Of a stretch of 64,000 nucleotides of DNA, positions 42,367-61,323 are shown in pieces; position 1 is the first letter of the stretch; the number at the start of each line of letters is the position of its first letter. Both the position numbers and the translations under genes were made by a program. The DNA comes from Dehalococcoidia bacterium (GTDB lineage Bacteria > Chloroflexota > Dehalococcoidia > Plut-88900): positions 2,368,001-2,432,000 of the forward strand of contig OZ240219.1 in the NCBI GenBank assembly GCA_965197645.1. Reading direction: 5' to 3'. Under the pieces are notes generated by a model. The model made no database searches and was not told where the DNA came from. It saw only the letters and a program-made list of their open reading frames with translations.

Positions 42367-42372
42367 TGCGCG

Positions 42373-45726: not shown

Positions 45727-45741
45727 AGCTGTTGCGTTAAC

Positions 45742-48700
45742 CTATTCCGCTTCTCTCAGCGTCTGCGCCGTCTTTAGACGGCGGATCAGGTACGCACCGA
45801 AACCGATTGTCGCCAGGGTCACGAGGCCCAGGCCTGCGTATGACACCGCCAACAGCACCGCATCCGAGTTGCGCAGCACCGGCGGCACTATAGGCCGGCC
45901 GGTGGGAGTGACCTCCAGGTAGTCCAGGCTCCAGCCGCCCAACCAGTAGCCTACTAGGGTCCCCGCTACCATCGCTAGCGCCACCATCACCAGCTTTTCC
46001 AGCACCAGGGAGGCCAGGAGCTGCCTGGCCGAAAACCCCAACGCCCTTGCCACAGAGATGTCCGTGCGGCTCTGCCTGATTGATACCGAGCTGACCATGA
46101 TCAGGCCCAGCAACGCCGAGCCTATCAGCGCTATCAGCCCGAGTATCGTGACTCCCCGCCACGCTCCCGCCGACAGCGGGTCCTTCAGGACGGACTCGAC
46201 CTTTCCATGTCCTTCGGTAAGCAGTAGTGAAGGGGGCAGTGACGTTCGCAGATCGGCCATATACTGCTCTTGGCCGGGGCCGGGCGCTAACCAGATCTCG
46301 TTGGGATGTATGCGTTGGGTCGGCGAGAGGTGCTTGAGAAAAGCCTCGTAGTGATCGATGTTGATCAGAAGGAAATGGCCGTAGCTGGGATCCAGGGTTG
46401 GAAAGTACTGCACCTCCTCAACGACCTCGACCGGGACCAACGACCTATCGTTCCGCAGCTCGAATTGCTGACCTGCAACAAACCCGGGCCCCGCTATTAC
46501 CGGGACCGGAATGGGACCGGAGGGCAGGTAGATGCCGCGGTTGCCGAAACCCTGGGTTCTCCCGAAGCTGAAGTGAACACCCAGCTTTCCATTGCGAGCG
46601 GCCTCGGCGGTCATCTCTATCGCATCGGTCTCCTGGCTTCCTATCGGCAAGGCCATCCAGGACTGTTCCGTCTCGAACCCTTCGATGATCTGTCCTTCGG
46701 CGGGAAGGCCGTTCCCCCAGACCGTGACGTCGTCCAAACTGACCGCGCTATGCGAGGGCAGCAGTATGGAGCCGCTGAAGAACAGAGAGATCAGCTCGAA
46801 ATCGGTACGGCGCTGAGAGCCTGGTGGGATCACCGAGTCCCTATAATGATTGGGCAACTCCCCACTCAGCAGCTGCCAGTCGTTCTGGGCATCCAGCTCA
46901 CCCAATGCCACGTTGCTGTACCGGCCCGCCGCATCCTGGATTCTCGCCCAGACCTTCATTCTCTCCGGAGCCAAGCCCCGCTGGGCAAATGTCCAGACTC
47001 CGATGCTTTCCGCGTTGTCGGGAATCGGCATACCCGTGATTTCCGGTTGAGGCTTATCTAAGGCGGCCAGCAGCGATGCCAGGTCGCGGTCGGCGAAATC
47101 GGACCTGAACCAACTCACCGCAGGCAGGGAGGCCGGCTCCACTGCCAGTATGGTAACCGCAGGCTCGGTAGAGGCCCCCACCACTTGTATCCGGTCGCGG
47201 CGGACCGGCGTGGCCTCCAGTTCAGCGGGCAGCCTTTCCAGTAGAGGCTGGACGGCTTTGTTCGGCTCCTGCCGGCTCACTATGATGGCCGGCGCGCCCT
47301 GTTCGTACTGGGCTTGGTCCAGCTGGCTCCTGGTGAGGGTCGACTCGAAAGTGGCACCGAAGATGCCCAGCGCCGTGGCGCCCAACACTATCAGGGCCAG
47401 CGATCCGTGAAGCATCGGGTTTCGGGCCATGCGCTTGACAGCGAAGCTGGCCCAGGCCACGTTGAACTGTTCGACCGCCCAGGCTGCCGCCTTGAGGACC
47501 CAGGGGAACAATCGGAGGAACACCAGCGATGCGCCCAGCAGCATCAAGGCCGGGCTTATGAGAAGACTGGCGTCCACCTCCAGGCCGCCCAGCAGCCCCG
47601 AGCTGACGAATCCTCCCCTCTCCCGGGCCTGCCACCAGACCAGCCCTCCCAAAGCCAGCACCACCCAGTCCAGGTGGTACCGGTGCACCAAAGGCATCAT
47701 GGGCGGACGGGCCCGCTCCTTGAGGCTATCGGACGGGCTCAAGCGGGTCAGTCCGAAGGTTGCCAGCAGGAACAACAACAGGCCCACCAGTCCTATGATC
47801 GCTCCCAGACCGTACACCTGAAGCGAAAGCGAAGCGGATATGGTGGACGGGTCGACGCCGGGTGGATCGATGACGCCCTTCAGCCAAAGCTGGGTTATGG
47901 CGAAGCCCAGCAGCGGGCCCAACCCTATCGCCAGCAAGACCACGACCGTCATCTCCCCGAAGGTCAGCAGCATGGTCGTCTGTCCGGTGGTCGCTCCCCT
48001 GGACCGGAGCAGTGCGGCCTCCTCTTTGCGTATCTGGGCGAGTAGATTGACCGATATCAGCAGCAGGTAGAGAACCAACGCCACGACCATGGAGATGAAT
48101 AGGAACAGGGGTACCCGCACCAGCGATATGTCCCTATCGTATTCTGTGAGCAGATCGTCCAGCGCGGTGATCACCAGGGAACGGCCGAAATTCTTGTTTA
48201 TGTCCGCCTCTAATCGTTCCAGTTGAGCTTTCGGCCCCTCGATGTCGCCCGGGGTTAGCAGGTCGGGGTCTATGAAGACCTGCCACCAGTAGCTGGCGCT
48301 GAAGAAGGGGTATCTAGTACCGAATTGTTGAAAGTAGGCCTCTTCGGGGATGTGCAGCGGCACGATGCGCCGGTTGTTGTCCAGATCGGCGGTAAAGTCG
48401 GATACGTCTCCCAGCCAGTACAGATCCCGCCTATCGGCCGGCTCGATGATCCCCACGATGTGAACGGTGATCGCCTCGTCCTGGACGTCGAAGAAGGGAA
48501 TGATGTCGATAGTCTCGCCGGCTGTCCAGCCCATTATCCGTGCGGCATCGGCGCCTACGACAGCCTCCAATTCCAGTAGGGGGTCTTCCGCCGGGAGCAC
48601 CTGCGCCGCCCGTCCCTCGACTATCGTGGTGTGTTCGGCAAACCTCGTCTTGAAGGTAAACAATCCCAGAGGGGTTTCGAGGCCGAGCGGCTCCCCCGGT

Positions 48701-49044
48701 GACTGCCGAAGAAGAAATCGTTGCGTACGCGCCAGCCGCTCCTGGGACTCCCGCATCCAGCCGATCTCCCCGGTGATCGCCCGCTCTAATACCTCGTTCA
48801 GCTCGACATAGTCCACAGGGCCGGTGGGACGGTCCGGAATCATTATCTGGGTGTTGAGCCCGACAGGAGACGCCGACGCTATCTTGTGTCTCAGCCCGGC
48901 CTCGGCCTGCAGCTCCGTGTAGATGTACGCCGCCGATACCAGGGTCACCGAGACCAGAACGGCAAAAGTGGCCAGAAGAAGCATAGCCCAGGTTGTCCTG
49001 AGCCTTTGCCGAAAGTTATAGAACAGGAGCTTCAGCCAGTCCAT
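45742..49044 (-). CDS. giant FtsX/MacB-like ABC permease, paralog
   Basis: EAALLRSRGA and DISVARALG motifs; same architecture; 1100 aa. Confidence 0.88.
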   Translation of the reverse strand: MDWLKLLFYNFRQRLRTTWAMLLLATFAVLVSVTLVSAAYIYTELQAEAGLRHKIASASPVGLNTQIMIPDRPTGPVDYVELNEVLERAITGEIGWMRESQERLARTQRFLLRQSPGEPLGLETPLGLFTFKTRFAEHTTIVEGRAAQVLPAEDPLLELEAVVGADAARIMGWTAGETIDIIPFFDVQDEAITVHIVGIIEPADRRDLYWLGDVSDFTADLDNNRRIVPLHIPEEAYFQQFGTRYPFFSASYWWQVFIDPDLLTPGDIEGPKAQLERLEADINKNFGRSLVITALDDLLTEYDRDISLVRVPLFLFISMVVALVLYLLLISVNLLAQIRKEEAALLRSRGATTGQTTMLLTFGEMTVVVLLAIGLGPLLGFAITQLWLKGVIDPPGVDPSTISASLSLQVYGLGAIIGLVGLLLFLLATFGLTRLSPSDSLKERARPPMMPLVHRYHLDWVVLALGGLVWWQARERGGFVSSGLLGGLEVDASLLISPALMLLGASLVFLRLFPWVLKAAAWAVEQFNVAWASFAVKRMARNPMLHGSLALIVLGATALGIFGATFESTLTRSQLDQAQYEQGAPAIIVSRQEPNKAVQPLLERLPAELEATPVRRDRIQVVGASTEPAVTILAVEPASLPAVSWFRSDFADRDLASLLAALDKPQPEITGMPIPDNAESIGVWTFAQRGLAPERMKVWARIQDAAGRYSNVALGELDAQNDWQLLSGELPNHYRDSVIPPGSQRRTDFELISLFFSGSILLPSHSAVSLDDVTVWGNGLPAEGQIIEGFETEQSWMALPIGSQETDAIEMTAEAARNGKLGVHFSFGRTQGFGNRGIYLPSGPIPVPVIAGPGFVAGQQFELRNDRSLVPVEVVEEVQYFPTLDPSYGHFLLINIDHYEAFLKHLSPTQRIHPNEIWLAPGPGQEQYMADLRTSLPPSLLLTEGHGKVESVLKDPLSAGAWRGVTILGLIALIGSALLGLIMVSSVSIRQSRTDISVARALGFSARQLLASLVLEKLVMVALAMVAGTLVGYWLGGWSLDYLEVTPTGRPIVPPVLRNSDAVLLAVSYAGLGLVTLATIGFGAYLIRRLKTAQTLREAE

Positions 49045-49332
49045 CGGCTGAATCGTCGGTCCTTTACATCTTCAGTATCGACTATAGAAACGGCGGCTTC
49101 GCCGCTTCGCCGTGCTATTGTAGATAACGCCTGTAGCCCCCTGGGGGTCGAGTTGTATATGTATCGCCTCGACGGACACTGGGAATTGAGGTAACGCTGC
49201 AGGTATCAACTTTGGGTGCGACTGAAACGATGCGGTTGAAGGTCGTACCCAGCGGGTTACAGGGTTCTTGGAGGCGCCTTTCGACTACATGGCTGCGGGG
49301 GCGGCCCTGCGCCTACCTCTGGCGCTGCCTGT

Positions 49333-49361
49333 ACCGTAGCAAAGGCCGATGGGTCTGTCAA
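49333..49361 (-). promoter_or_regulatory. candidate promoter of the ABC operon
   Basis: TTGACA-17 bp-TACGGT with TG extension. Confidence 0.45.
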
Positions 49362-49410
49362 GAATTTCACAAACTCCACCGGAACGGATCGATCTGCGGA
49401 TGTAATTCGA

Positions 49411-49514
49411 GGAGTCCAGAGGGCTTTCCTCTGGCAGGAGGCCTGGGGGATGTTCCCCTGGAACATTAAACATCCCAGGGCGGGAGGGAGGGAAAACCAA
49501 CCTGGGGTGGGGGA
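49411..49514 (+). repeat. intergenic repeat family C, copy 1
   Basis: GGAGTCCA.AGGGCTT..CTCTGGCAGG.GG..TGGGGGA.GT.CCCC shared with 51232 and 57995. Confidence 0.8.
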
Positions 49515-49647
49515 ATTCTGACCTCTAGCGGTACCGCGCGGTCTCGAGTACACCATCTTGCCAGCCGGAGCGGGCTGCGGTAAGCTCATCCATATCTACA
49601 CGCGTCTCCAGTCCAACCTATAAATCTCGGTTTCAGGAGGTCATGAA

Positions 49648-51207
49648 ATGGCTGACGCTCAGTACGACGCGATAATCATCGGCGGGGGCCACAACGGCCT
49701 CGTCACCGCCGGCTACCTGGCCAAGGAGGGCCTCTCCGTGCTGGTGCTGGAGCGGCAGGACGTAATCGGCGGCGCCTGCATCACAGAGGAGCTTTACCCG
49801 GGGTTCCGGGTGCCCTACTGCGCGTACATCTGCTACCTCCTTCAGGGCCGGGTAATCGACGATCTGAAGCTCCGTGACTACGGCCTTGAGATCATTCCCC
49901 TGGAGTACGGCACCTTCCATCCCTATCCCGATGGCAGGCACATCCAGCCGGACGGTCGTAACGAACACCAGTCCACCGCCCAGCAGATCGCCCAATTCTC
50001 CGAGCACGATGCGCGGGCGTACCCCGAGTGGGCCTCCTTCTTCGACAAGGCCTCGGAGTTGATGTACCGCTACTGGCTCAAAGAGCCTCCGACCCTCGCC
50101 CAGATATTCGAAGACGTTCGAGGCACGAGAAATGAGCAGGTCTGGGAGACGATGCTTACCGTGAGTGTGCGAGACCTGCTGGACCAACACTTCGAGTCTG
50201 AGCACGTCAAAGCCAACTTCGTCCAGGCGATGGACACGGGAGACCCCAGCGCACCCGGCAGCATCCTCAGTGCCGCCTACTACGACTGCGCCCGGTTCAG
50301 CAAGCGGGAGAACGTCGGAATCCCACGCGGCAGCATGGGCGCCATCACCCAGGCCATGGCCAGGTCCGCAGAGGCCCGGGGCGTGGAGCTTCGAGTAGGG
50401 GCGCTCGTCGAAAAGGTGCTGGTGGACGGTGGCATCGCCAAGGGAGTTCGAATGGCCAACGGAGAAGAGATTTACAGCCGTATCGTGGTCTCTGACGCCG
50501 ATCCGAAACGCACCTACCTATCCCTGGTCGAGGAGGAGGATCTGAGCCAGGACTTCATCGGTAAGGTAAAGAGCCTTACTACCAGAGCCAACTGCGTCAA
50601 GTTCCTAGCCGCTCTCAGCGAGCTTCCCGACTTCAGCCGGTACCTGGGTGCAGACTTCGATTCCAGGCGCATCGTCGCCACCCACATCTGCCCCTCTGTC
50701 GACTACTACCAGCAGAGCTGGGACGCCTGCAAAGCGGGCATCCCCTCCAGCTATCCCATTATGGATGTGCAGATACCTTCCATCGTAGACCCGGCGCTGT
50801 CGCCTCCCGGCCATCATTCCCTCTCCGCCTGGTGTCTCTACTATCCGGCCGATCCCAAGACAGGCTCCTGGGACGACCTCGGCAAACAGGTCGGCGAGCA
50901 GATCATCGACGTGCTGACCGAGTACGCTCCCAACTTCCGCAAGGCGATTGTCGATTGGACGGTCCAGACCCCCAAGGACATCGAGATTCGAGAGGGTATG
51001 ACCGACGGTAATATCCGTCACATCGATATCACTGCGGAGCAGATGTTTGCCGGCCGGATGCCCTACCGCGCGCCCATCGAGAATATGTACATGTGCGGGG
51101 CGGGCACCCATCCCGGCGGCGAGGTTACCGCGGCGCCCGGGCACAACGCAGCCAAGGCCATCATCAAGGACCTGAGGCGCGCAGCCGAGCTTCAGCCCGT
51201 GGGATAA
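49648..51207 (+). CDS. phytoene dehydrogenase-like FAD oxidoreductase (PYROXD2-like)
   Basis: GGGHNGLV, GGACITEE, YRAPIENMYMCGAGTHPGG and APGHNAA motifs. Confidence 0.92.
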   Translation: MADAQYDAIIIGGGHNGLVTAGYLAKEGLSVLVLERQDVIGGACITEELYPGFRVPYCAYICYLLQGRVIDDLKLRDYGLEIIPLEYGTFHPYPDGRHIQPDGRNEHQSTAQQIAQFSEHDARAYPEWASFFDKASELMYRYWLKEPPTLAQIFEDVRGTRNEQVWETMLTVSVRDLLDQHFESEHVKANFVQAMDTGDPSAPGSILSAAYYDCARFSKRENVGIPRGSMGAITQAMARSAEARGVELRVGALVEKVLVDGGIAKGVRMANGEEIYSRIVVSDADPKRTYLSLVEEEDLSQDFIGKVKSLTTRANCVKFLAALSELPDFSRYLGADFDSRRIVATHICPSVDYYQQSWDACKAGIPSSYPIMDVQIPSIVDPALSPPGHHSLSAWCLYYPADPKTGSWDDLGKQVGEQIIDVLTEYAPNFRKAIVDWTVQTPKDIEIREGMTDGNIRHIDITAEQMFAGRMPYRAPIENMYMCGAGTHPGGEVTAAPGHNAAKAIIKDLRRAAELQPVG

Positions 51208-51231
51208 CCGCCTCGTACGCACGCGATCCGG

Positions 51232-51326
51232 GGAGTCCAGGGGGCTTCCCTCTTGCAGGGGGTTGGGGGACGTGCCCCCAGATACAAGACGTCTCAGGGT
51301 GGGTGGGAGGGAAGAACCACCTGGGG
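51232..51326 (+). repeat. intergenic repeat family C, copy 2
   Basis: colinear with 49411; both end in AACCA.CTGGGG. Confidence 0.8.
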
Positions 51327-51351
51327 CGGAGCGTCCCATGCAGACCTGGCG

Positions 51352-51391
51352 AGATTGCCACGCCCCGACTTTGTCGGGCCTCGCAATGACG
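51352..51391 (-). repeat. REP-like family B
   Basis: reverse complement of the 60244 element; degenerate opposite-strand partner at 51419..51474. Confidence 0.85.
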
Positions 51392-51590
51392 AAGGTTTAG
51401 ACTCAACCCAACCGTGGTCGTCGTTGCGAGCGAGGGGGAGTTCGTCTTAGAGGGGTGAGGGAGCGAAGCAATCTAGTCCGCTTCGACCATCTCCCTGGCT
51501 CTCTTCCCGGGGTGGGGAATTGACGAATGCGATCCAGGGCGTGCGGAATCCCCCGAACCTGACCCAGATTCCCGCGAAATGGGCCGCGCC

Positions 51591-51631
51591 CTTGTCTTCC
51601 CTCGTGTTATGGGTGCAGGGCATCGCCCTGC
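51591..51631 (+). repeat. small hairpin repeat D (TTATGGGTGCAGGGC.TCGCCCTGC)
   Basis: second copy nested at about 58020..58054. Confidence 0.7.
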
Positions 51632-52603
51632 CTACGGCACCAGGGTCAGCAGAAACTCGTAGACGATGTTGGCCGCCAGTATCGACGTGATGTCCGCAGT
51701 ATCGTAGGGCGGCGCAACCTCCACTACATCGAAGCCCACAGCCCCGATCCCCCTGAGGCTTCTCACCAACGCCAGCGCCTCCCGGCTGGTGAAACCCGCC
51801 ACCTCCGGCGTTCCAGTGCCCGGTGCAAACGCCGGGTCCACAGAGTCGATGTCGAAGGAGATGTGTACCGGGTGGCCCTTGGTAACTTCCTTGATAATGG
51901 CCGCCGTCTCATCGGGTCCCTGCTTCCAGAACTCGTCGCCCGTTATAGAGGTGATGCCTGCGGCCCGTACCGTGTCCACCAGTGCCAGCGATCCGCCGCC
52001 CCTGATGCCCACCTGCACCGAGCTGTGCGGGTCCATAACCCCCTCCTCGGCGGCCATGTAGAACATGGTGCCGTGGTGGTAGGGGTGCTCCGGGTCCTCC
52101 GGCTTCCAGAAATCGGGGTGAGCGTCGAAGTGGACCAGGGAAATCTTGCCGTATTTCTTATAGAGCGCCCTGAGAATCGGTAGTGAGATGGCGTGGTCGC
52201 CGCCCAAGCAGACGGGAAAAGCATCTCCGTCGATGACCTTAGTTACCGCAGCCTCCATCTTCTCGGCTGCGAACTCAATGTACCCGATGGGCATCTCCAC
52301 GTCACCGTAGTCGACTATACGCAGGCTCTTGAACGGCTCGACCAGGTGCTCCCTCTTCAGATCGTGGGTAGGGACATGGGCCGTGGCGTTGCGTATCCCC
52401 TTGGGCCCATAGCGCGTTCCGGCGCGCATGGTAGTGCCCAGGTCCATCGGCATCCCGATGATCGCCACGTCGGCTTTGGTCATGTCCCGGCTGCCGGGCA
52501 CCCGCATGAAGGTGTAGGGTCCCGAGAAAAAGTTGCCTCCCTGCCACTCCTCGGGCATCAGCCGGCGCTTTGGGGGCTTACGTTTCGGTGTTTCGGAAGC
52601 CAT
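51632..52603 (-). CDS. speB: ureohydrolase (agmatinase-like), paralog 2
   Basis: GTRYGP, GGDH, DAHPD, HGTMF, SFDIDSVDP and GTGTPE motifs; substrate unverified. Confidence 0.88.
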   Translation of the reverse strand: MASETPKRKPPKRRLMPEEWQGGNFFSGPYTFMRVPGSRDMTKADVAIIGMPMDLGTTMRAGTRYGPKGIRNATAHVPTHDLKREHLVEPFKSLRIVDYGDVEMPIGYIEFAAEKMEAAVTKVIDGDAFPVCLGGDHAISLPILRALYKKYGKISLVHFDAHPDFWKPEDPEHPYHHGTMFYMAAEEGVMDPHSSVQVGIRGGGSLALVDTVRAAGITSITGDEFWKQGPDETAAIIKEVTKGHPVHISFDIDSVDPAFAPGTGTPEVAGFTSREALALVRSLRGIGAVGFDVVEVAPPYDTADITSILAANIVYEFLLTLVP

Positions 52604-52622
52604 CCGTTTCTCCGATCTTTCT

Positions 52623-53600
52623 CTAGGTTAGCCGGGTCAGCAGAAATTCGTAGATGATGTTAGCCGCCAGGATCGAGGTGATGTCGCCCTTGTTGTCATA
52701 AGGTGGCGCCACCTCGACTATATCGAAGCCCACGGCCCCGATCCCTACGAGGCTTCTCACCAATGCTAGCGCCTCCCGGCTGGTGATCCCGGCCGTCTCG
52801 GGTGTTCCGGTCCCCGGAGCGTAGGCTGGGTCCACGGAATCGATGTCGAAGGAGATGTGTACGGGGTGCCCCTCCGTCACTTCCCTGATCTTGGCCGCCG
52901 TCTCGTCGGGGCCCATCTTCCAGAACTCATCTCCCGTTATCGACGTGATACCCGCTTTCCGCACTTCGCCAAGGAGGTCTAGCGAGCCGCCGCCCCTGAT
53001 GCCCACCTGCACCGAGCTGTGCGTGTCCATTATCCCTTCCTGGGCAGCTATGTAGAACATGGTGCCGTGCTCGTAGGGGTGGTCCGGGTCTTCGGGCTTC
53101 CAGAAGTCGGGATGGGCGTCGAAGTGGACCAGGGAAATCTTGCCGTGTTTCTTGTAGAGGGCTCTCAGAATCGGCAGCGAGATGGTGTGGTCGCCGCCCA
53201 GGCAGACGGGAAAAGCATCTCCATCGATTACCTTAGTTACCGCAGCCTCCAGCCGCTCGATGGCCAGCTCGATGTACCCGTAGGGCATGGTTACGTCGCC
53301 GTAGTCGATGATTCTCAGGCTCTTGAACGGCTCTACGAGGTCGGTTCTCTTCAAACCGTGCTTGGGAATGTGGGTGGAAGCGCTTCGAATCCCCTTGGGT
53401 CCGTAGCGGGTCCCGGAGCGCATAGTCGTGCCGAGGTCCAGCGGCATCCCGATGATGGCCACGTCCGCCTTGGTCATGTCCCGGCTGCCCGGTACCCTGG
53501 CGAAGGTGGACATGTTGGAGTAGGAATTGCCGTCCTGCCACTCCTGGGGCATCAGCCGCCGTCTAGGAGCGCGGCGTATTGGCCCGTCAGCCGAAGTCAT
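52623..53600 (-). CDS. speB: ureohydrolase (agmatinase-like), paralog 1
   Basis: same motifs; highly similar to 51632..52603; substrate unverified. Confidence 0.88.
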   Translation of the reverse strand: MTSADGPIRRAPRRRLMPQEWQDGNSYSNMSTFARVPGSRDMTKADVAIIGMPLDLGTTMRSGTRYGPKGIRSASTHIPKHGLKRTDLVEPFKSLRIIDYGDVTMPYGYIELAIERLEAAVTKVIDGDAFPVCLGGDHTISLPILRALYKKHGKISLVHFDAHPDFWKPEDPDHPYEHGTMFYIAAQEGIMDTHSSVQVGIRGGGSLDLLGEVRKAGITSITGDEFWKMGPDETAAKIREVTEGHPVHISFDIDSVDPAYAPGTGTPETAGITSREALALVRSLVGIGAVGFDIVEVAPPYDNKGDITSILAANIIYEFLLTRLT

Positions 53601-53609
53601 GAAGTCCCC

Positions 53610-54743
53610 CTATTCCAGCGCGAGAGTTTCCATGACCCACCGATTGAACCGGTGCAGCGAGCCTTCCTGCGGCGCGTAGATGCCTCGCTGGTAGGCCTTG
53701 GACTGTACGCCTGTCTGCTCCATCTCGCAGACCTCCCAGTCCTCCACGTTCACCGTGTCCCAGAACTGGACGATATCGTCCGGATTGAAGTCACTTCGCT
53801 CCATCGTGGACGGCTCGAACAGCCACTCGCAAACCACCTTTGTCTTGCCCGGCCCTTCCGGCCAGATGGCGTGGGTCATCACGCAGTCGGGATGTAGGTT
53901 CACCAGCAGGTTGGGCAGCAGGGTCCCGCCCCCGTAGGTGTTCTTCTCCGACTCGTTCAAGCCAGGAAACAAGGGCCGGTTGGATTTGCCGTTGGGAGTG
54001 AAGGTATAGCCGTTGTCTACTATGTAGTTGCCGTGGGCGTCGTCCGGCTCGGTCAGGATGCCCTTGCGATAGACGGGCACGATGTCGCACAGGGCGGGAT
54101 GTACCCCCGGGCAGTGGAGGCACTCCGAATAGTTCTCTACGATGATCTTCCAGTTGGCCTTTACATCGTAGGTGATGATCTTGCCCACCTGCAGATCGGC
54201 TATCGGATAGTTCCTCATCCGGTCTTCGTAGTAGCCAAGCTGGTCCCGTATTGGCTTGGGATTGTCCGATAAGTTGACGAACAGGAACCCGTTCATTGTC
54301 TCGATGGGAGCCGAGAACAGCGGGTAGTCCTTCATATCGAAGTCGTCGGTCTCCACCATGTTGGGAGTGGCCAGCAGCTTCCCATCCAGACCGTAGGTCC
54401 AGCCGTGGTACTTACAGGCGAAGGCCCCCCCGTTGAAGCGGCCCTGTGCCTCCTGGCAAAGCTTGGTGCCCCGGTGCCGGCAGACGTTGTAGAAGGCGTG
54501 CACCTCGCCCCTTTTGTCCCGGGTGATGATGGCGCTCTCATCCACTATCTGGCGCACCATGTAGTCGCCCGCGTTGGGGATTTCGTTGGCACGCCCCACG
54601 TAGAACCACATGTCGTGGAAGATAAGTTCCTTCTCCCGCTGGTATATCGCTTCTTCGTAGTAGTAGCGACTGGGGATAGTGGGCTCGCAACGGTCCAGGA
54701 ACTCCCACGATTCGTGCGATTGGTGCTTCTCTTCGATTACCAT
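53610..54743 (-). CDS. Rieske non-heme iron oxygenase alpha subunit (GbcA/CntA/choline monooxygenase-like)
   Basis: CRHRG..CKYHGW Rieske site; NWKIIVENYSECLHCPGVH and ED mononuclear iron ligands. Confidence 0.92.
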   Translation of the reverse strand: MVIEEKHQSHESWEFLDRCEPTIPSRYYYEEAIYQREKELIFHDMWFYVGRANEIPNAGDYMVRQIVDESAIITRDKRGEVHAFYNVCRHRGTKLCQEAQGRFNGGAFACKYHGWTYGLDGKLLATPNMVETDDFDMKDYPLFSAPIETMNGFLFVNLSDNPKPIRDQLGYYEDRMRNYPIADLQVGKIITYDVKANWKIIVENYSECLHCPGVHPALCDIVPVYRKGILTEPDDAHGNYIVDNGYTFTPNGKSNRPLFPGLNESEKNTYGGGTLLPNLLVNLHPDCVMTHAIWPEGPGKTKVVCEWLFEPSTMERSDFNPDDIVQFWDTVNVEDWEVCEMEQTGVQSKAYQRGIYAPQEGSLHRFNRWVMETLALE

Positions 54744-54758
54744 ACCGGGTCTCCTTCG

Positions 54759-56318
54759 TTAGCTGACCTGTTGGTGGGCCACGACCTTGGCCAGGTCCTT
54801 GAGTATGGCCTTGGCGGCGTTGTGCCCGGGGGCCCCGGTAATATCCCCGCCCGGATGAGTGCTGGACCCGCACATGTACATCCGGTCTATGGGCGCTCGA
54901 TAGGGCATACGCCGTGCAAATATCTGGTGGGAGTTTATATCTATGTGACGGATGTTGCCGTCGGTCATCCCCTCTCGAATCTCTATGTCCTTCGGGGTCT
55001 GGGCCGTCCAGTCAACCAGCAGTTCCCGGAAGTTGGGCGCGTACTGGGACATGATATCGATTATCAGCTCGCCCACCTTCTGGGCCTCATCGTCCCAGGA
55101 CCCATCCGATAGCCGGGCTGGATAGTATCGGCACCAGGCCGAGAAGACGTGGTGTCCCGGCGGGGCCAGGGACGGGTCGTAGATCGAGGGTATCTGCACG
55201 TCCATCACGGGGAACGGCGAGGATTTACCCGCCTTGGCGTGGTCCCAGCTGTCCTGGCAGTAGTCGGCCGATGGGCAGATGGTGATCTGGGCTATCCGCC
55301 GCGGATCGTAGTCGTTGCCCAGGTAGCTGCTGAAGTCGGGCAGGCCGTTCAGCGCCGCCAGGAACTTGACGCAGTTCCCGCGAGTGGATAGGTTCTCCAC
55401 CTTGTGGATGAACTCTTCGTCCAGGTGCTCCGGGTCCACCAGGGACAGGTAGGTGGTCTTGGGATCGGCGTTGGATACAACGATGAAGCTTCGAACCTCC
55501 TCGCCGTCGGCCATCTTCACGCCCTTGGCCACACCCTTCTCGACAATCACCCTGTCCACCCTCGAGCCGGTCCTGATCTCCACGCCCCTGGCCTGGGCGG
55601 ACTTGGCCATGGACTGGGTGATCTGGCCGATGCCGCCCTTCGGTATGCCGATGTCCTCGGGCCGGCTGAACTCGGACGCGTGCTCGTAAGCGGTGCTGAT
55701 GATGCTGCCCGGTCCGCTGGGGTCGCCTTCGCCTACCGGATCGATAAAGTGGGCCTTCACGTACTCCGACTCGAAATACCGGTCTATCAGGTCCCGCTGA
55801 CTGAGGGTGAGCATCGTATCCCACACCTCTTCGTCCCGGGTGCCCCGCACGTCCTCGTATACCTGGGCCAGCGTCGGCGGTTCCTGGAGCCAGTAGCGAT
55901 GCAGGATGCCCGCCGCCTGCTCCCAGAACTCTTTCCACTCCGGGAATGCCCGGGCGTCGTGCTCCGAAAACTTGGCGATGTCCGTAACCGCAGACTCCAG
56001 GTCGCCCCGGCCCCCCAGTTGAAGGTAACTGCCATCGGGGAACGGGTGCAGGTGGCCTTCGGTGGTCTGGATCACATCAAAGCCGTACTCCCGCAGCTCC
56101 AGGTCGTCGATAATCCTCCCCTGCAACAGGTAGACGATGTAGGCGCAGTATGGGACGAAGAACCCGGGGGTCAGCTCCTCGGTTACCACCGCGCCGCCCA
56201 CCACATCCTGTCGTTCCAGCACGAGAACGGAGAGCCCCTCGCCGGCCAGGTAACCGGCGGTCACGAGCCCATTATGCCCGGAACCGATGATTATGGCGTC
56301 GTACTGGGTCTGCTCCAT
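54759..56318 (-). CDS. phytoene dehydrogenase-like FAD oxidoreductase, paralog
   Basis: 519 aa, colinear with 49648..51207. Confidence 0.92.
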   Translation of the reverse strand: MEQTQYDAIIIGSGHNGLVTAGYLAGEGLSVLVLERQDVVGGAVVTEELTPGFFVPYCAYIVYLLQGRIIDDLELREYGFDVIQTTEGHLHPFPDGSYLQLGGRGDLESAVTDIAKFSEHDARAFPEWKEFWEQAAGILHRYWLQEPPTLAQVYEDVRGTRDEEVWDTMLTLSQRDLIDRYFESEYVKAHFIDPVGEGDPSGPGSIISTAYEHASEFSRPEDIGIPKGGIGQITQSMAKSAQARGVEIRTGSRVDRVIVEKGVAKGVKMADGEEVRSFIVVSNADPKTTYLSLVDPEHLDEEFIHKVENLSTRGNCVKFLAALNGLPDFSSYLGNDYDPRRIAQITICPSADYCQDSWDHAKAGKSSPFPVMDVQIPSIYDPSLAPPGHHVFSAWCRYYPARLSDGSWDDEAQKVGELIIDIMSQYAPNFRELLVDWTAQTPKDIEIREGMTDGNIRHIDINSHQIFARRMPYRAPIDRMYMCGSSTHPGGDITGAPGHNAAKAILKDLAKVVAHQQVS

Positions 56319-56506
56319 TGGCCTGTCTCCCGGCGTGGACTGGTGAGCGTGAGATCGGAGATGACGGAGGCTATCTTACCACACGGCCCAGCCTTTGAAC
56401 GAGATCAGACCCGAACAAGGCTTGCCTTGTTGGCACACCCGGAAACGCTAGAACCCTCCAGAAGGGCGCTTGGGGATGGACGTTCCATTTGCTAAAGCCC
56501 TCCATA

Positions 56507-56698
56507 CAGCAAGCCGATGAAACACGGGGTGTGCAGAGGGGCGAAGCAAGTTCTTCTGAGACTGCCTGCTGGGGGCCGGGAGTCTGAGAGCCTGCCCTGA
56601 GTCAGCCGAAGGGGTGTCCCTCAGAAACCATATCTTTTTCCCCCCTTCCTGGCCAGGAAGGGGGCCAGGGGGATGGTTGAAAAGATTCTTCAACCCTC
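56507..56698 (+). repeat. intergenic repeat family A, copy 3, with a nested insert of about 23-25 bp
   Basis: insert AGCCTGCCCTGAGTCAGCCGAAG at about 56589..56611 is absent from copies 1 and 2. Confidence 0.87.
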
Positions 56699-56817
56699 GA
56701 CAAGGCATTGGGGCGAAAATAGCAAACATGGTTCTCAACCAACCTCCGTCCCCAATTGTTGCCGGCGTTGGAAGACTGTAGAATGCATGCACACGGAGGA
56801 CACTAGGCCCGCTCAGG

Positions 56818-57963
56818 ATGGACACGACGATGCTAGGCGTCAAATCTGAGGGAATCATCACCGCCGACGAGATTGTGGCGGCTACCCTCCCGCCGTCTCA
56901 GGCCTCCACCCTACCACCTCGGTGCTATGCCTCGCCCGAGATATACGATCTGGAGCTGGAGCGAATATATCGCAGAAATTGGCAGCTGGTCGGCCGGGTC
57001 GAGGAGGTGGCGGCACCCGGTGATTACTTTTGCATAGACGTGGCCAACGAGCCCCTCGTAGTCGTCCGCGACAGGAGCGGCCGGGTCCGGATCCTATCGC
57101 GGGTATGTCGACACCGGTGGGCACACGTCATCGACGGGCACGGCAACACCTCCTCTTTCCAGTGCCCCTATCACGCCTGGACGTACGACCTGGATGGCAG
57201 GCTCATGGGCGCGCCGGAGATGAAAGACACGGCGAACTTCGATACGGCGCTGCACTGCTTGCCTTCCCTACCCACAGAGGTATGGGAAGGGTTCATATTC
57301 GTCAATCTGGACCCGCAGGCCCGGCCCCTGAGACCGGAGCTGGCCACCCTCTCCAAGAGGTTGAGTAACTATCGGCTTGACGATATGCAGTTGGTCTACA
57401 CCAAACAGTTCGATGGCCGCTGGAACTGGAAGGTGTTCGTGGACAACTTCAACGAGTTCTATCACCATCTGGGCCTCCACAAGGACACCCTGCAGGACGT
57501 TAGCCCAGCCCACCACACTGTGGTCGAAGATACCGATGGGCCCTATTGCTTCCAACGCCTACGGATGACCGACGACGGGGGAGATTACGCCCTCCTTCCC
57601 CAGATAGAGGTCCTTACCTCGGAGCAGGTCGAGGAGGTCGTACTGGTCACCCTGTTCCCAAACTTTCTACTGATTCTCCTGGCAAATTGCATCACCTACT
57701 TCCGAGTCCTCCCTTCAGAGACCGAAGAGACCTACCTGACCTTGAACATCGCCGTTCCCCGGACATCCCTCGGCGTGCCCGACTTCCAGGACCGGTTGAA
57801 GACGATAACCGAGAGCACCCTGGAGTTCCACTACCAAGACATGGCGATCTGCGATGCCGTGCAGAGCGGCCTCAAGTCAAGCATGGCAAAACAGGGCCGG
57901 CTGTCGTGGATAGAGAAGTCCCTGTGGCAGTTCAACCAGTGGTATCTGGAAATGATGGCATAG
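56818..57963 (+). CDS. Rieske non-heme iron oxygenase alpha subunit
   Basis: TLPPRCY, CRHRW..CPYHAW, NWKVFVDNFNEFYHHLGLH and QD motifs. Confidence 0.92.
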   Translation: MDTTMLGVKSEGIITADEIVAATLPPSQASTLPPRCYASPEIYDLELERIYRRNWQLVGRVEEVAAPGDYFCIDVANEPLVVVRDRSGRVRILSRVCRHRWAHVIDGHGNTSSFQCPYHAWTYDLDGRLMGAPEMKDTANFDTALHCLPSLPTEVWEGFIFVNLDPQARPLRPELATLSKRLSNYRLDDMQLVYTKQFDGRWNWKVFVDNFNEFYHHLGLHKDTLQDVSPAHHTVVEDTDGPYCFQRLRMTDDGGDYALLPQIEVLTSEQVEEVVLVTLFPNFLLILLANCITYFRVLPSETEETYLTLNIAVPRTSLGVPDFQDRLKTITESTLEFHYQDMAICDAVQSGLKSSMAKQGRLSWIEKSLWQFNQWYLEMMA

Positions 57964-57994
57964 AGATGAGTCAGTCACCGAAATTCGCGTCCAG

Positions 57995-58120
57995 GGAGTC
58001 CAAAGGGCTTCGCCCTCCCTTGTCTGATATTATGGGTGCAGGGCCTCGCCCTGCCTCTGGCAGGGGGCTTGGGGGCCGTTCCCCCAGTTAAACTAATGTC
58101 CGAGGGCGGGCGGTTGGGAC
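57995..58120 (+). repeat. intergenic repeat family C, copy 3, with nested repeat D
   Basis: family C halves split by the D hairpin. Confidence 0.75.
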
Positions 58121-58153
58121 AGCGATGCTAGATTGTTTGAGGCAAACGGAACG

Positions 58154-59011
58154 ATGAAAGACTTCAAGGACAAGGTAGCAGTCATCACCGGCGCCGCCAG
58201 CGGCATCGGGTACGCGATCGCCGAAAAGGCAGTATCCGAAGGAGCGAAAGTCGTGCTCGCTGACGTGGAGGAGCAGGCCCTAGTCAAAGCCGAGGCGGAG
58301 CTGAAGGAGCAGGGAGGCTCCGTGCTTTCCGTGCTTACCGACGTGTCCAGGCCGGAGGACATAGAAGAAGTGGCCAAACAGACCCTGGACGCCTTCGGCG
58401 CTGCGCATCTGCTCTTCAACAACGCCGGCGTGGGAGCGGGCATGTCCGTCTGGCGCAGCACCATCGCCGACTGGCAGTGGGTCTTGAACGTCAACCTGTG
58501 GGGCGTGATCTACGGCATCAAGACCTTCGTGCCCATCATGAATGAGCAGGACACCGAGTGCCATATCGTCAACACCTCATCTCTGGCTGGGCTGGTCTCC
58601 TTCCCGGGCCTCGGGCCGTACAACATCACTAAGTTCGCCGTGGTAACCCTGTCCGAGACCCTCTACCACGAGCTTGCCCTGGAAAGGTCGAAGATCGGGG
58701 TCTCGGTACTGTGTCCCGGCTGGGTGAGCACCAGGATCATGGAGTCGGACCGCAACCGTCCTTCCCAGCTTCAGAACAGTCCATCGGAGGAAAGACGGTC
58801 CAGGGAGCAGGTCAACCGGGCGGCGGAGCTGAGAGATATGGCGAGAAACGGGACGCCACCCGCCGATATCGCCAGTGCGGTCTTCGAGGCGATGCGAGAA
58901 GAAAAGTTCTATATCCTTCCCCATCCCGAGGCGAACGCCTTAATAGAGCTTCGCATGGACGACATACTGAAGGGACGAAACCCGACTCCCCGTTCCGGTA
59001 TAGGGTCGTAG
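58154..59011 (+). CDS. short-chain dehydrogenase/reductase
   Basis: TGAASGIG, NNAG, NTSS and YNITK motifs. Confidence 0.94.
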   Translation: MKDFKDKVAVITGAASGIGYAIAEKAVSEGAKVVLADVEEQALVKAEAELKEQGGSVLSVLTDVSRPEDIEEVAKQTLDAFGAAHLLFNNAGVGAGMSVWRSTIADWQWVLNVNLWGVIYGIKTFVPIMNEQDTECHIVNTSSLAGLVSFPGLGPYNITKFAVVTLSETLYHELALERSKIGVSVLCPGWVSTRIMESDRNRPSQLQNSPSEERRSREQVNRAAELRDMARNGTPPADIASAVFEAMREEKFYILPHPEANALIELRMDDILKGRNPTPRSGIGS

Positions 59012-59068
59012 GTAGAGGGCGGCAGGGCAGGCCTTGGCTCCCCTGCAATCCCTTAAAGGAGAGCACAC

Positions 59069-60220
59069 GTGTGGTTGCACTTCACCGAGGAAGAGCTGGC
59101 CCAGCGTAGACAAAAGACCATCGCCGAGATGACGGCTCGAGGGCTGGACGCGTTGCTGGTGTTCCGGCAGGAGAGCATGTACTACCTGACCGGGTACGAC
59201 ACCATGGGCTACTCCCAGTTCCAGGCCCTCTACCTCGGGGCCGATGGAACCCTGATCCTGCTGACCCGCTCTCCCGACCTGCGCCAGTCGAAATTCACCT
59301 CGGTAATCGAAGATGTCCGGATATGGGTCGATCGGGGCGGCGGAAACCCCGGACTGGACCTTTTGGACATCCTGAAAGGGCAGGGCTGCCGCGACAAGAA
59401 GCTTGGCGTCGAGCTCCACGCCTGGACCCTCACCGGTCAGCGGTGGGAGATGGTCAAGGCAGCCCTGGACGGCTTCTGCAGCTACGAGGATGCCACAGAC
59501 ATCGTCAATGAGCTGCGCATGGTCAAGAGCGACGCCGAGGTCGAGTACGTGAGAAAGGCCGCCGGTCTGGCCGATGCGGCACTGGCCGAGGCCCAGAAGC
59601 TGGCCACACCGGGCACTCCCGAGCAGGAGATCTTCGCCGGTATGCACTCGGTGATTTTCCGCGGCGGCGGAGACTATCCAGCCAGCCGGTTCATCATCGG
59701 AGCGGGCGAGCGGGCGCTCATGGTCCGCCATTTCACCGGCTACGGCACCATCGGCGACAACGACCAGATGCAGCTGGAGTTTGGCGCCACCTATCGCCAC
59801 TATCACTCATGCCTAATGCGGACGATACTTACCACGAAGGCGGACCCGCTCCACGTGCGGATGCACGCCGCCTGCGTCGATGCCTTGAAGGCCTGTCAAG
59901 AGGCGGCCGTACCCGGCGCCACCTACGGGGATGTCTTCGATGCTCACGCCCGCACCTTCGATGAAGCGGGATTCGGCGAGCACAAGCTGAACGCCTGTGG
60001 ATACAGCCTCGGCGCCCTCTATCCGCCGACCTGGATGGACTACCCTATGCTCTACGCGGCCAACCCGGTGGTTGTCCAGCCCAACATGGTGATCTTCATG
60101 CACATGATCCTGCTGGACAGCAACACCGGGCTCACGATGTCGATGGGAGAGACGTCCCTGATTACCGAGACCGGCTGTGAGAGCCTGTCCAAGATGCCGA
60201 AGGACCTGGTGGTCAACTAG
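59069..60220 (+). CDS. M24 family pita-bread hydrolase, EutD/DoeA/creatinase-like
   Basis: ESMYYLTGYD, LRMVKSDAE, YRHYHSCLMRT and CGYSLG motifs; canonical prolidase metal ligands are replaced. Confidence 0.85.
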   Translation: MWLHFTEEELAQRRQKTIAEMTARGLDALLVFRQESMYYLTGYDTMGYSQFQALYLGADGTLILLTRSPDLRQSKFTSVIEDVRIWVDRGGGNPGLDLLDILKGQGCRDKKLGVELHAWTLTGQRWEMVKAALDGFCSYEDATDIVNELRMVKSDAEVEYVRKAAGLADAALAEAQKLATPGTPEQEIFAGMHSVIFRGGGDYPASRFIIGAGERALMVRHFTGYGTIGDNDQMQLEFGATYRHYHSCLMRTILTTKADPLHVRMHAACVDALKACQEAAVPGATYGDVFDAHARTFDEAGFGEHKLNACGYSLGALYPPTWMDYPMLYAANPVVVQPNMVIFMHMILLDSNTGLTMSMGETSLITETGCESLSKMPKDLVVN

Positions 60221-60243
60221 CGCGTCGCTTGCAACTACGGCCT

Positions 60244-60283
60244 CGTCATTGCGAGACCCGACAAAGTCGGGGCGTGGCAATCC
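60244..60283 (+). repeat. REP-like family B
   Basis: CGTCATTGCGAGACCCGACAAAGTCGGGGCGTGGCAATCC. Confidence 0.85.
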
Positions 60284-60376
60284 AGATTTTGACAGATTCC
60301 TCGGCCTCGAAACTTCTTTCCAGGAGTTCGATTACCTTAGCTGTTGTGTCTTTCCGTGCTCATATCATCCTGCTCT

Positions 60377-61114
60377 CTACTCCTGTGGGATAACAGGGGC
60401 GGTGATGACGTTCGGCTCCCCGTGGCCGGAGAGGGTGAAGGTGACGTCGACGTGGTGCTCCGGGAACCCGCCGCCCCTCGGCCTTAAATACTCCTGCCTG
60501 GCCTGAACCAGCCTCCCCGCCGAATCGATCCAGAACTCCCAGTTCTCGAAGGTTCCGGGGATCCCGCCAATCACGGTATGATCCGCTTCTGCTATGTAGT
60601 GTTTGACCGAGGTGTTGTCATCGCCGATGGTGACCGTTCCCAGGAACTGGACATCGGCCGGGTCCCAACTCCCGCAGAATGTCGGTGTGGGCGGGTCGAT
60701 GGATTTAGCTGTTGTGTCTTCGTCCGAGCGTGTGGAGGAGCTGGCCGGCGGGGTCAAAATCTCAATCTCTTCCCACGAGCCCCATTGCCCATTCTGCCCC
60801 GTCTCCCGTACGTACCACCTGCGGTCTACCCTTATCTCCTCGTATCCAGGGGGCTGGTCTTTGTAGCGGCTGGTCTGGTGCATGGAATCCCCATGGATAC
60901 GGCCTTCGATGACTGTATGCACCGTCGTATCGCTCTTCCGATCAGCACCGGTGATGGTGAAGTCAACATCGGTGTACTCAGCGGTACAGGCGTCCCCCAC
61001 CGCGACCGCGGCTTCGACCGGCGTCGCCGTGCGACATGATAGTGTCACCATCATCGCCGCAGCCAGCATTAGGGCCACAACGCTCAACCTCGGATACAGT
61101 TTCGCTGACCTCAT
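60377..61114 (-). CDS. secreted lipoprotein, possible LolA/LppX-like beta fold
   Basis: signal peptide ending in LSC; EFWIDSAGRLVQ and SGHGEPNVITAP motifs; ATGA overlap with the upstream gene. Confidence 0.7.
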   Translation of the reverse strand: MRSAKLYPRLSVVALMLAAAMMVTLSCRTATPVEAAVAVGDACTAEYTDVDFTITGADRKSDTTVHTVIEGRIHGDSMHQTSRYKDQPPGYEEIRVDRRWYVRETGQNGQWGSWEEIEILTPPASSSTRSDEDTTAKSIDPPTPTFCGSWDPADVQFLGTVTIGDDNTSVKHYIAEADHTVIGGIPGTFENWEFWIDSAGRLVQARQEYLRPRGGGFPEHHVDVTFTLSGHGEPNVITAPVIPQE

Positions 61115-61323
61115 AACGTGGTGTCTGTTAGGTCGTCGTCGTCGAGCCAGCCGTACTTGCGGCATAGACGGACCCAAAGTCGCTGGGTATTAGCGGTATC
61201 GCGCCTGGCTTCCACCGACATGTCCGTAAGGCGAATCTGTAAACCGGCTAAAGTAGCCTGAACTATTTCCATTCTGTCCACACGGCCCTCCAACTTGTCC
61301 ATGGGTTCATCTGCCATCGTCAT
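61111..61323 (-). CDS. small hypothetical protein (70 aa)
   Basis: GAGGAGG RBS, coiled-coil-like N-terminus, coupled to both neighbours. Confidence 0.65.
   Translation of the reverse strand: MTMADEPMDKLEGRVDRMEIVQATLAGLQIRLTDMSVEARRDTANTQRLWVRLCRKYGWLDDDDLTDTTL

Follow-up and report, generated by a model that had tools for sequence, protein, structure and literature searches.

What do a flavoprotein, a Rieske oxygenase and two ureohydrolases do side by side? These enzymes are encoded by one operon in a 64,000-nucleotide stretch of DNA (hereafter, the window; positions 2368001-2432000 of a single 3,211,320-bp contig) from an uncultured marine Dehalococcoidia (SAR202-like) bacterium, the genome of which is 94.5% complete with 6.35% contamination. 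An initial annotation of this stretch had proposed a pathway for the catabolism of N-methylated guanidino or amine compounds. Our own answer is tentative: it is quite possible, and more likely than any alternative considered here, that the operon, FP1-RO1-UHa-UHb, is a narrow-clade catabolic operon that scavenges nitrogen from a cationic, possibly N-methylated, guanidino compound. A search of the literature returned no characterised system that combines a quaternary-amine Rieske oxygenase, a CrtI-like flavoprotein and ureohydrolases. No paper joining Rieske, guanidino and ureohydrolase was found in the full-text search, and nothing relevant was found on sponge Chloroflexi and creatine.

The operon lies on the minus strand. 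Its first gene, FP1 (54759-56318, 519 aa), encodes a flavoprotein with a CrtI/CrtD fold predicted to bind flavin adenine dinucleotide (FAD). It is followed by RO1 (53610-54743, 377 aa), which encodes the alpha subunit of a group-V-type Rieske monooxygenase, by UHa (52623-53600, 325 aa), which encodes an arginase-family ureohydrolase of the agmatinase/guanidinobutyrase branch, and by UHb (51632-52603, 323 aa), a tandem paralog of UHa. According to the open reading frame (ORF) coordinates, the four genes are co-oriented and the spacers are 15, 9, and 19 bp. A paralog of FP1, FP2 (49648-51207, plus strand, 519 aa), converges on the operon, and three further genes (RO2, SDR and M24) diverge from it. 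The pairwise identities are 82% for UHa/UHb, 66% for FP1/FP2 and 30% for RO1/RO2. In the Pfam search, FP1 and FP2 matched Amino_oxidase/NAD_binding_8, RO1 and RO2 matched Rieske and Ring_hydroxyl_A, and UHa and UHb matched Arginase. Thus, the genes, gaps and paralogs described in the initial annotation are all in place, as judged from the ORF coordinates, Pfam and NCBIfam. At third codon positions, the GC of the eight genes lies at 0.77-0.83 and matches that of a neighbouring FtsX permease gene, which supports their being real, native coding regions. The nearest homologs carry source names of Dehalococcoidia, Chloroflexi or SAR202 metagenome-assembled genomes.

To assign RO1, we compared it with proteins of solved structure. 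The top matches were the stachydrine demethylase Stc2 (3vca, E 7e-47) and the carnitine monooxygenase CntA (6y8j, E 2.6e-43), and ring-hydroxylating enzymes scored below both. In an alignment of 37 relatives, C88, H90, C110, H113, E207, C208, H210, C211, H215 and D335 are invariant. The CxH...CxxH ligands of the Rieske cluster and the 2-His-1-Asp iron site (H210, H215 and D335) are complete. In the HMMER alignment, the segment ENYSECLHCPGVHP of RO1 is placed against DNYMECYHCGPAHP of CntA and ENNRECYHCSSNHP of Stc2. E207, C208 and C211 of RO1 align with E205, C206 and C209 of CntA, which are the bridging Glu and the Cys-x-x-Cys pair. Furthermore, Y205 aligns with the pi-cation Tyr of CntA, Y203; at this position RO1 is like CntA and unlike Stc2. 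In passages of two papers (PMC7948474, PMC10952381), this aromatic residue is described as the pi-cation contact to the quaternary ammonium that sets group Va apart, and the Cys pair as a feature confined to certain group V enzymes. Among 169 motif-spanning matches of the RO1 family (160 loci in other organisms), the pi-cation site is Tyr in 136, Phe in 32 and Asn in one, and the E-C-H-C-H residues are kept in all 169.

As judged from its residues, RO1 is a group-V-type enzyme, predicted to act on a charged substrate. Since the metal ligands, the bridging Glu, the Cys pair and the pi-cation Tyr are all present, an aromatic-ring substrate is unlikely. The proposal that RO1 is of the GbcA/Stc2/CntA kind is thus borne out by its nearest solved relatives and its active-site residues. 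However, RO1 reached only 234.5 bits on the GbcA equivalog model, far under the cut-off of 670, and thus has no named enzyme as its ortholog. In common with the group V enzymes CntA, Stc2 and GbcA/BmoA, it has the ligands of the Rieske cluster and of the 2-His-1-Asp site, the bridging Glu and the Cys-x-x-Cys pair, and in common with CntA (group Va) also the aromatic residue two positions before the bridging Glu. It differs from these systems in having no adjacent reductase gene and in showing at most 49% identity to relatives outside its own small clade. No beta subunit gene adjoins RO1 among the ORFs and Pfam matches. To our knowledge, no group V system (CntA, Stc2, GbcA/BmoA) has ureohydrolase and CrtI-like flavoprotein genes as neighbours.

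UHa and UHb both contain the GGDH, DAHPD and DIDSVDP metal motifs and the catalytic His and Glu, which were confirmed in alignments to 3nio, 3nip and 7lol. Thus, both ureohydrolases are intact. UHa scored 296 bits on the Pfam Arginase model. Both proteins pass the two NCBIfam agmatinase models: PRK02190 (cut-off 302) with 313.2 for UHb and 304.9 for UHa, and TIGR01230 (cut-off 174.3) with 206.2 and 198.3, respectively. At least 13 ureohydrolase paralogs were found in the genome by tblastn, and 12 of them were scanned on these models; UHa and UHb were the only two that passed both. None of the ten others reached the PRK02190 cut-off, and one barely reached that of TIGR01230. The best solved match of both proteins was the guanidinobutyrase GbuA (3nio; 238.6 bits for UHa and 230.9 for UHb), the other matches being the guanidinopropionase GpuA (3nip), a Burkholderia 'agmatinase' (4dz4) and the E. 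coli agmatinase SpeB (7lol; 193.4 bits for UHa and 205.2 for UHb). UHa and UHb are thus like GbuA, GpuA and SpeB in family and in all metal and catalytic motifs (193-239 bits), and unlike them in being tandem duplicates in an operon with an oxygenase gene and in possessing a loop A of their own.

Loop A, which follows DAHxD, is FWKPEDPDHPYE in UHa and UHb. It has the length of the GpuA loop, 12 residues, versus 9 in the E. coli agmatinase. The loop carries Phe-Trp, in contrast to Val/Thr-Asn in GbuA/GpuA and Thr-Tyr in SpeB. The Trp occupies the position of Tyr155 in SpeB and of Asn in GbuA/GpuA. In the passages available from PMC8125230, from which the name of the loop is taken, Tyr155 is proposed to hold the amine of agmatine. 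The Trp is a weak hint, from the alignment, that the substrate may have a cationic or hydrophobic tail.

Arginine decarboxylase was not found: the sole PF02784 match was LysA (469.6 versus 297.9), and PF01862 and PF01276 had no matches, although its absence is not proven in a genome that is 94.5% complete. Since no arginine decarboxylase was found, a biosynthetic role of the SpeB type is unlikely for UHa and UHb. One spermidine synthase gene is present, far from the cluster. Two urease alpha genes are encoded elsewhere in the genome, and these ureases could process the urea released by UHa and UHb. In the FastTree phylogeny, UHb branches outside the group of UHa and the copy of a relative in the order (G001), so that the timing of the duplication is ambiguous.

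These data bear on a plainer explanation, in which UHa and UHb degrade imported agmatine or a guanidino acid, and RO1 and FP1 act on an unrelated quaternary amine such as betaine. Besides the agmatinase cut-offs that both proteins pass, the source names of their close homologs are 'agmatinase', the Trp of loop A stands at the Tyr155 position, and a single-copy ortholog is found in 10 of 11 relatives, mostly in non-informative contexts. On the other hand, the best solved match is the guanidinobutyrase rather than the agmatinase, and loop A is longer by the counts given above. Furthermore, the gene is duplicated and lies in an operon with RO1 and FP1, and in a relative the Rieske and ureohydrolase genes come from contigs of one size (see below). 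Hence we regard this explanation as rather unlikely.

A metformin-hydrolase-like identity was also tried and rejected as distant: subunit A matched UHb with E 7.8e-21 (78 bits), and no match to UHa was found at E<=1e-20. In the passages available, the metformin hydrolase MfmAB/MetCaCb is a heteromeric, Ni-dependent enzyme encoded, like UHa and UHb, by two adjacent paralogs in one operon. Unlike that enzyme, UHa and UHb are 82% identical and both carry all ligands.

Tandem arrays of arginase-family genes were observed elsewhere in the genome. Five to six genes lie head to tail at 1499017-1505072 (L217:517-6572), and three more lie at 2522555-2525813 (L219:555-3813). On the agmatinase models, the scores of all of them are well under those of UHa and UHb. 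The number of arginase-family genes suggests that the bacterium is widely specialised on guanidino compounds, or possibly that some of its ureohydrolases are heteromeric.

As for the flavoproteins, FP1 matched the Pfam models Amino_oxidase, DAO and NAD_binding_8. In its GxGxxG FAD motif, G12, G14 and G17 are invariant, and the fold is of the CrtI type with three domains. The sole solved sequence relatives of FP1 are CrtI (4dgk, E 3e-16), a gamma-carotene desaturase (4rep) and 3ka7, and the identity to solved desaturases is 18-19%. The AlphaFold model of FP1 (pLDDT 90.8) was compared with solved structures by Foldseek. The best match was 4rep (TM 0.79/0.83, E 1.7e-26), with 4dgk at E 6.6e-22, and a second tier consisted of the flavin amine oxidases NicA2, MAO and putrescine oxidase (TM ~0.5-0.64). 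The modelled fold would be compatible with both C-C desaturation and amine oxidation and does not decide between them. FP1 and FP2 share the fold and the FAD motif with CrtI, CrtD and CrtO, but, although CrtO/CrtI is their best NCBIfam match, they score far below the family cut-offs (crtI_fam, cut-off 238.1: 100.4 for FP1 and 119.1 for FP2; CrtO, cut-off 1000: 261.5 and 290.5) and have no carotenoid genes nearby. The SQS_PSY genes of the genome occur only at 241985-243637, ~2.18 Mb from the cluster. These are two tandem matches of the squalene/phytoene-synthase family, which lie away from the FP paralogs found. Another FP paralog, 57% identical to FP1, is located at 2755788-2757320; one in-frame TAG was reported for it, as against a 510-aa open frame in the ORF call.

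A lead to the function of FP1 comes from the ESM Atlas, in which the nearest FP clusters are automatically named 'pyridine nucleotide-disulfide oxidoreductase domain-containing protein'. The link to human PYROXD2 runs only through this automatic cluster name. In the parts of the sources available, levels of trimethylamine and dimethylamine (PMC3169529) and of N2-acetyl-N6,N6-dimethyllysine (PMC13352909) are associated with the PYROXD2 locus, and the biochemical function of PYROXD2 is called unclear (PMC8777681).

The desaturase-like fold raises another explanation, that a ring-hydroxylating Rieske enzyme and a desaturase degrade a hydrophobic or aromatic substrate of the carotenoid, isoprenoid or ring type. 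The best structural match of FP1 and the labels of homologs ('aromatic ring-hydroxylating dioxygenase' and 'phytoene desaturase family') agree with it. So does the expansion of enzyme families in SAR202, which includes ring-hydroxylating dioxygenases according to passages of PMC6946804; the same passages do not mention agmatinase, arginase or phytoene. However, RO1 bears the group V signature, with Stc2 and CntA as its nearest relatives, and has no beta subunit gene beside it. Together with the low scores of the flavoproteins on CrtI and CrtO and the distance of the SQS_PSY genes, these results make such a pathway very improbable.

How, then, would RO1 receive its electrons? The whole-genome matches to Fer2, NAD_binding_1, the small Rieske family, Pyr_redox_2 (E<=1e-10) and SQS_PSY all lie outside the window. 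This agrees with the earlier observation that carotenoid genes, a Rieske reductase and a ferredoxin are absent from the window. Outside the window, there are genes for a 408-aa AndAa/HcaD-like ferredoxin-NAD+ reductase (369.6 bits, cut-off 650) and a 102-aa HcaC-like Rieske ferredoxin, both of which are clear members of their families although they fall short of the equivalog cut-offs. None of the three RO paralogs with listed neighbourhoods has an adjoining FP-family gene, and no Fer2 or NAD_binding_1 match lies near any Rieske gene of the genome. Since Rieske genes without a nearby reductase gene are normal in this genome, the flavoprotein is not called for as an electron donor.

The initial annotation had offered the flavoprotein as the missing reductase that feeds the Rieske oxygenase. 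In its favour, the window lacks both a reductase and a ferredoxin, and an FP-family gene lies within 10 kb of the RO1-family gene in 35 of the 160 loci listed. However, the genome has its own unlinked reductase and Rieske ferredoxin, three of its Rieske paralogs do without a neighbouring flavoprotein, and the fold of FP1 matches substrate-oxidising CrtI/CrtD enzymes and amine oxidases. CrtI/CrtD and amine oxidases have one dinucleotide site and are not known to carry an Fe-S domain. We therefore discount this role as highly improbable.

From these assignments, we infer the substrate, the order of the steps and the flavoprotein reaction as follows. A small cationic guanidino compound of the agmatine- or arginine-derived type, possibly N-methylated or N-alkylated, would be taken up. 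RO1 would hydroxylate the carbon next to the charged nitrogen, with electrons supplied by the unlinked ferredoxin reductase and Rieske ferredoxin. The outcome would be N-dealkylation or C-N cleavage, as in Stc2/GbcA or CntA. FP1, and also FP2, would oxidise either the substrate or the product, at a C-N or C-C bond. UHa and UHb would hydrolyse the guanidino group to release urea, and the two ureases encoded elsewhere would convert the urea to ammonia. The catabolism of N-methylated guanidino or amine compounds proposed in the initial annotation thus fits the RO1 signature, the twin ureohydrolases, the ureases and the neighbourhoods in other phyla (see below); the specific substrates and the role of the flavoprotein did not find such backing. 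A more specific version is that RO1 and the PYROXD2/CrtI-like flavoprotein act together to remove methyl or alkyl groups from a cationic N-methylated guanidino compound, and that the twin agmatinase-like enzymes then release urea. The substrate would possibly come from the metabolism of a sponge host, as a methylated compound of the agmatine or arginine type. We consider this version improbable.

To investigate whether the genes are conserved together, we searched a large protein collection. RO1 relatives were found at 81% (P0122), 71% (P0123) and 67% (P0124) identity, followed by proteins at 61% or less. UHa relatives were found at 87% (P0242) and several at 67-71%, and FP1 relatives at 80% (P0002), 75% (P0003) and 68% (P0007). 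The flavoprotein P0002 and the Rieske protein P0124 have consecutive accessions on a 3252-bp contig. The ureohydrolase P0246 and the partial flavoprotein P0050, each at 71%, are placed two accessions from each other on a contig of 3170 bp. P0122 and P0242 are each assigned to an ENA contig of 8645 bp, and the NCBI proteins P0362 and P0007 (flavoproteins), P0123 (Rieske) and P0363 (ureohydrolase) each come from a 39847-bp contig, although the shared sizes of 8645 and 39847 bp are proof neither of one contig nor of adjacency. P0362 belongs to the cluster of P0003, P0007 is FP2-like in the tree, and P0363 falls into a cluster represented by P0248, a protein with 68% identity to UHa. Taken together, as judged from these records, the set of flavoprotein, Rieske oxygenase and ureohydrolase is kept in a small clade at 67-87% identity. 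A check of neighbourhood conservation thus found members of these families together on four metagenomic contigs of closer relatives. In addition, the DNA runs of two other studies contain contigs that together cover 49000-60000, the UHb/UHa junction among the parts spanned, with mismatches of ~2-8% for the long DNA-run records listed.

We also analyzed the neighbourhoods of RO1 relatives in other phyla. The 160 loci listed (80 from genomes and 80 from metagenomes, many on short contigs) show 37-46% identity to RO1, the only range among the matches listed from genome and metagenome contigs. A GcvT-like gene is present in 55 of the 160, an amino-acid permease gene in 41, a DAO-type FAD oxidase gene in 15 and a ureohydrolase gene in five. 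The FP-family genes mentioned above are often two in tandem. On three contigs of the Gemmatimonadota type (L042, L058 and L171), flavoprotein, Rieske, DAO-type and ureohydrolase genes are combined, in subsets and orders that differ from contig to contig. This recurrence is at the family level: the flavoproteins (33-38% identity) and ureohydrolases (31-33%) of other phyla are not orthologs of FP1 and UHa. The clusters of Acidobacteriota and Gemmatimonadota are like that of the window in that an RO1 relative adjoins one or more FP-family genes. They have GcvT-like, permease and peptidase neighbours, some also DAO-type and ureohydrolase genes, whereas the cluster of the window has no GcvT-like or DAO-type gene. 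GcvT-like and DAO-type genes are typical of N-demethylation, and their recurrence with the same families lends substance to the N-demethylation theme of the initial annotation. The recurrence fits the catabolism of N-methyl amines or amino-acid derivatives and does not pinpoint a substrate.

Some details of these loci were recorded in passing. The contigs L042 (3418-7857), L058 (1303-7265) and L171 (1-10855) also carry a second Rieske gene, and L058 a TonB-dependent receptor gene. In Acidobacteriota, a recurrent cluster consists of the RO1-family gene, a tandem pair of FP-family genes and, on the opposite strand, a conserved gene for a GcvT-like protein of 399 aa (L103:10001-15637; similar in L039, L041, L051, L060 and L066); the GcvT-like proteins are 77-83% identical over the six loci. 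In L051, which was scanned, an amino-acid permease gene and M14 and M28 peptidase genes are close by.

Against the guanidino-catabolic reading of the operon stand a number of results, which we gather here. The samples comprised 12 genomes of the order and 401 of the class, each including that of the window. The full cluster was found in none of the 11 other genomes of the order. An ortholog of the ureohydrolase (65-79% identity) is present as a single copy in 10 of these 11, but in none of the 10 is a Rieske oxygenase, SDR or M24 gene found within 10 kb, and nine of them also lack a flavoprotein gene there. The exception is G001, in which an FP2-like gene converges on the ureohydrolase gene and an Amidohydro_2 gene lies upstream. 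No RO1 relative in the order exceeds 47% identity, and among the 400 other genomes of the class there is no RO1 match at E<=1e-130. Ureohydrolase relatives at 51-58% identity (tblastn) are present in 19 further genomes of the class, and no flavoprotein, Rieske oxygenase or M24 gene was found in the fetched flanks of these 19. In neither G001 nor G009 do the FP1-clade genes adjoin a Rieske gene. Co-conservation thus holds for the four contigs of closer relatives, subject to the caveat on shared contig sizes, and fails for the 11 other genomes of the order and the 400 of the class. In a quick tree, the Rieske-linked flavoproteins of other phyla form a separate group. By its modelled fold, FP1 stands closest to carotenoid desaturases, and amine oxidases come next. 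Neither a transporter nor a regulator nor a riboswitch was found in the cluster; an Rfam scan of the window gave no match at gathering score, neither a guanidine nor any other riboswitch, and with permissive settings the sole match in 49000-58000 was to a miRNA, at chance level. Finally, each family involved is represented in the genome by many paralogs, with at least 13 arginase-family, nine FP-like, 11 M24 and ~25-30 SDR genes, and with 11 Rieske-domain genes, eight of which match RO1 in a protein search of the genome. Some of the adjacency in the cluster could therefore be due to chance.

These numbers lead to the explanation that the genes are juxtaposed without forming one pathway, as a loose co-transcribed 'organic nitrogen' set in which each enzyme has its own substrate. 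The contexts of the ureohydrolase, flavoprotein and M24 orthologs differ between genera, dispersed repeats lie in every intergenic region that bounds a transcription unit of the cluster (see below), and no regulator or transporter is shared. However, the spacers within the operon are merely 9-19 bp, the same families recur on the four contigs of relatives, and an independent set of flavoprotein, Rieske, DAO-type and ureohydrolase genes recurs in another phylum. We take juxtaposition to be somewhat unlikely, yet an explanation that has to be kept in mind.

The three divergent genes on the right-hand side of the operon are candidate members of the pathway only. RO2 (56818-57963, plus strand, 381 aa) encodes a second Rieske oxygenase. 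Its motif is F-x-E-F-x-H-H, with Phe at the pi-cation place and without the Cys pair, and none of its relatives in the order exceeds 37% identity. SDR (58133-59011, plus strand) encodes an SDR oxidoreductase (Pfam adh_short) that passes NCBIfam PRK06194 (348.5 bits, cut-off 308), and a dispersed repeat lies between RO2 and SDR. M24 (59069-60220, plus strand) encodes an M24-fold hydrolase with the Creatinase_N and Peptidase_M24 domains, the architecture of both the ectoine hydrolase DoeA and creatinase. Its best solved match was DoeA (E 1.2e-36). In contrast to those enzymes, it falls below the cut-offs of two equivalog models of the creatinase/DoeA type (173.5 versus 575, and 145.8 versus 613) and is not co-conserved with the operon. 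No creatinase was among its solved-structure matches at E<=1e-10. On these results, the suggestion that the M24 protein is a creatinase was rejected. Orthologs of M24 at 71-76% identity occur in two other genera, and in genus g4 they lie among unrelated genes. Since RO2, SDR and M24 show no co-conservation with the operon, their place in the pathway is not supported.

The dispersed intergenic repeats were located by blastn-short matches within the genome. One lies at 56513-56682 in the divergent promoter region, and similar intergenic repeats lie at 49406-49511, 51226-51487, 58012-58120 and 60223-60285. Each block has up to 37-72 overlapping matches in the genome. Local repeat pairs (D3, D6 and I3) were detected, and a 40-nt pair, 51353-51392 and 60243-60282, is 98% complementary. 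At the repeat blocks, metagenome contigs show high depth and many joints or breaks. The repeats may drive the rearrangements seen between genera. A scan for promoters and terminators found fewer sites than in shuffled sequence and therefore carries no information on the transcription units.

The flanks of the cluster were also examined. On the minus strand at 40749-49044, directly upstream of FP2, there are two ABC ATPase genes and, after them, two genes that encode proteins of ~1100 aa with C-terminal FtsX-like permease domains; this block is not a typical uptake system. On the other side, three minus-strand ORFs (60377-61177, 61336-61830 and 62382-63257) have no Pfam or NCBIfam matches. Two of them are 54-56% identical to each other, with a common ending of the type GHGEPNVITAPVIP, and paralogs of the third occur elsewhere in the genome, at 3054561-3056590, 3063977 and 76114.

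To look for signs of expression, sequence records of RNA libraries were compared with the window. Three libraries labelled 'sponge metagenome' contain a small share of its sequence words. In two libraries, short contigs with 0-4 mismatches lie on FP2, UHb and RO1. One contig spans the UHa/RO1 junction (53502-53795, 2 mismatches in 294) and one the RO1/FP1 junction (54596-54873, 0 mismatches in 278). Against their use as support for the operon, contigs of RNA libraries can stem from DNA, and a contig over two genes is not proof of one transcript; conversely, stretches without such a contig are not evidence of silence. These contigs are a weak hint of expression and of a sponge-associated habitat.

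Should the enzymes act separately, the locus would be an ordinary neighbourhood of catabolic genes. If one compound is the substrate of all three enzyme types, they would form a new route by which uncultured Chloroflexi mineralise guanidino or methylated-amine nitrogen, with a link to sponges that rests on few RNA-library contigs. The joining of a quaternary-amine Rieske oxygenase with ureohydrolases would be a new combination. The many ureohydrolase genes, several of them arranged in tandem, indicate that the genome is broadly specialised on guanidino compounds. If RO1 and the flavoprotein do demethylate their substrate jointly, this would be the first biochemical role for the large family of 'phytoene-dehydrogenase-like' flavoproteins. 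The pairing, across phyla, of Rieske genes with CrtI/PYROXD2-like flavoprotein, GcvT-like and DAO-type genes hints at the function of that family.

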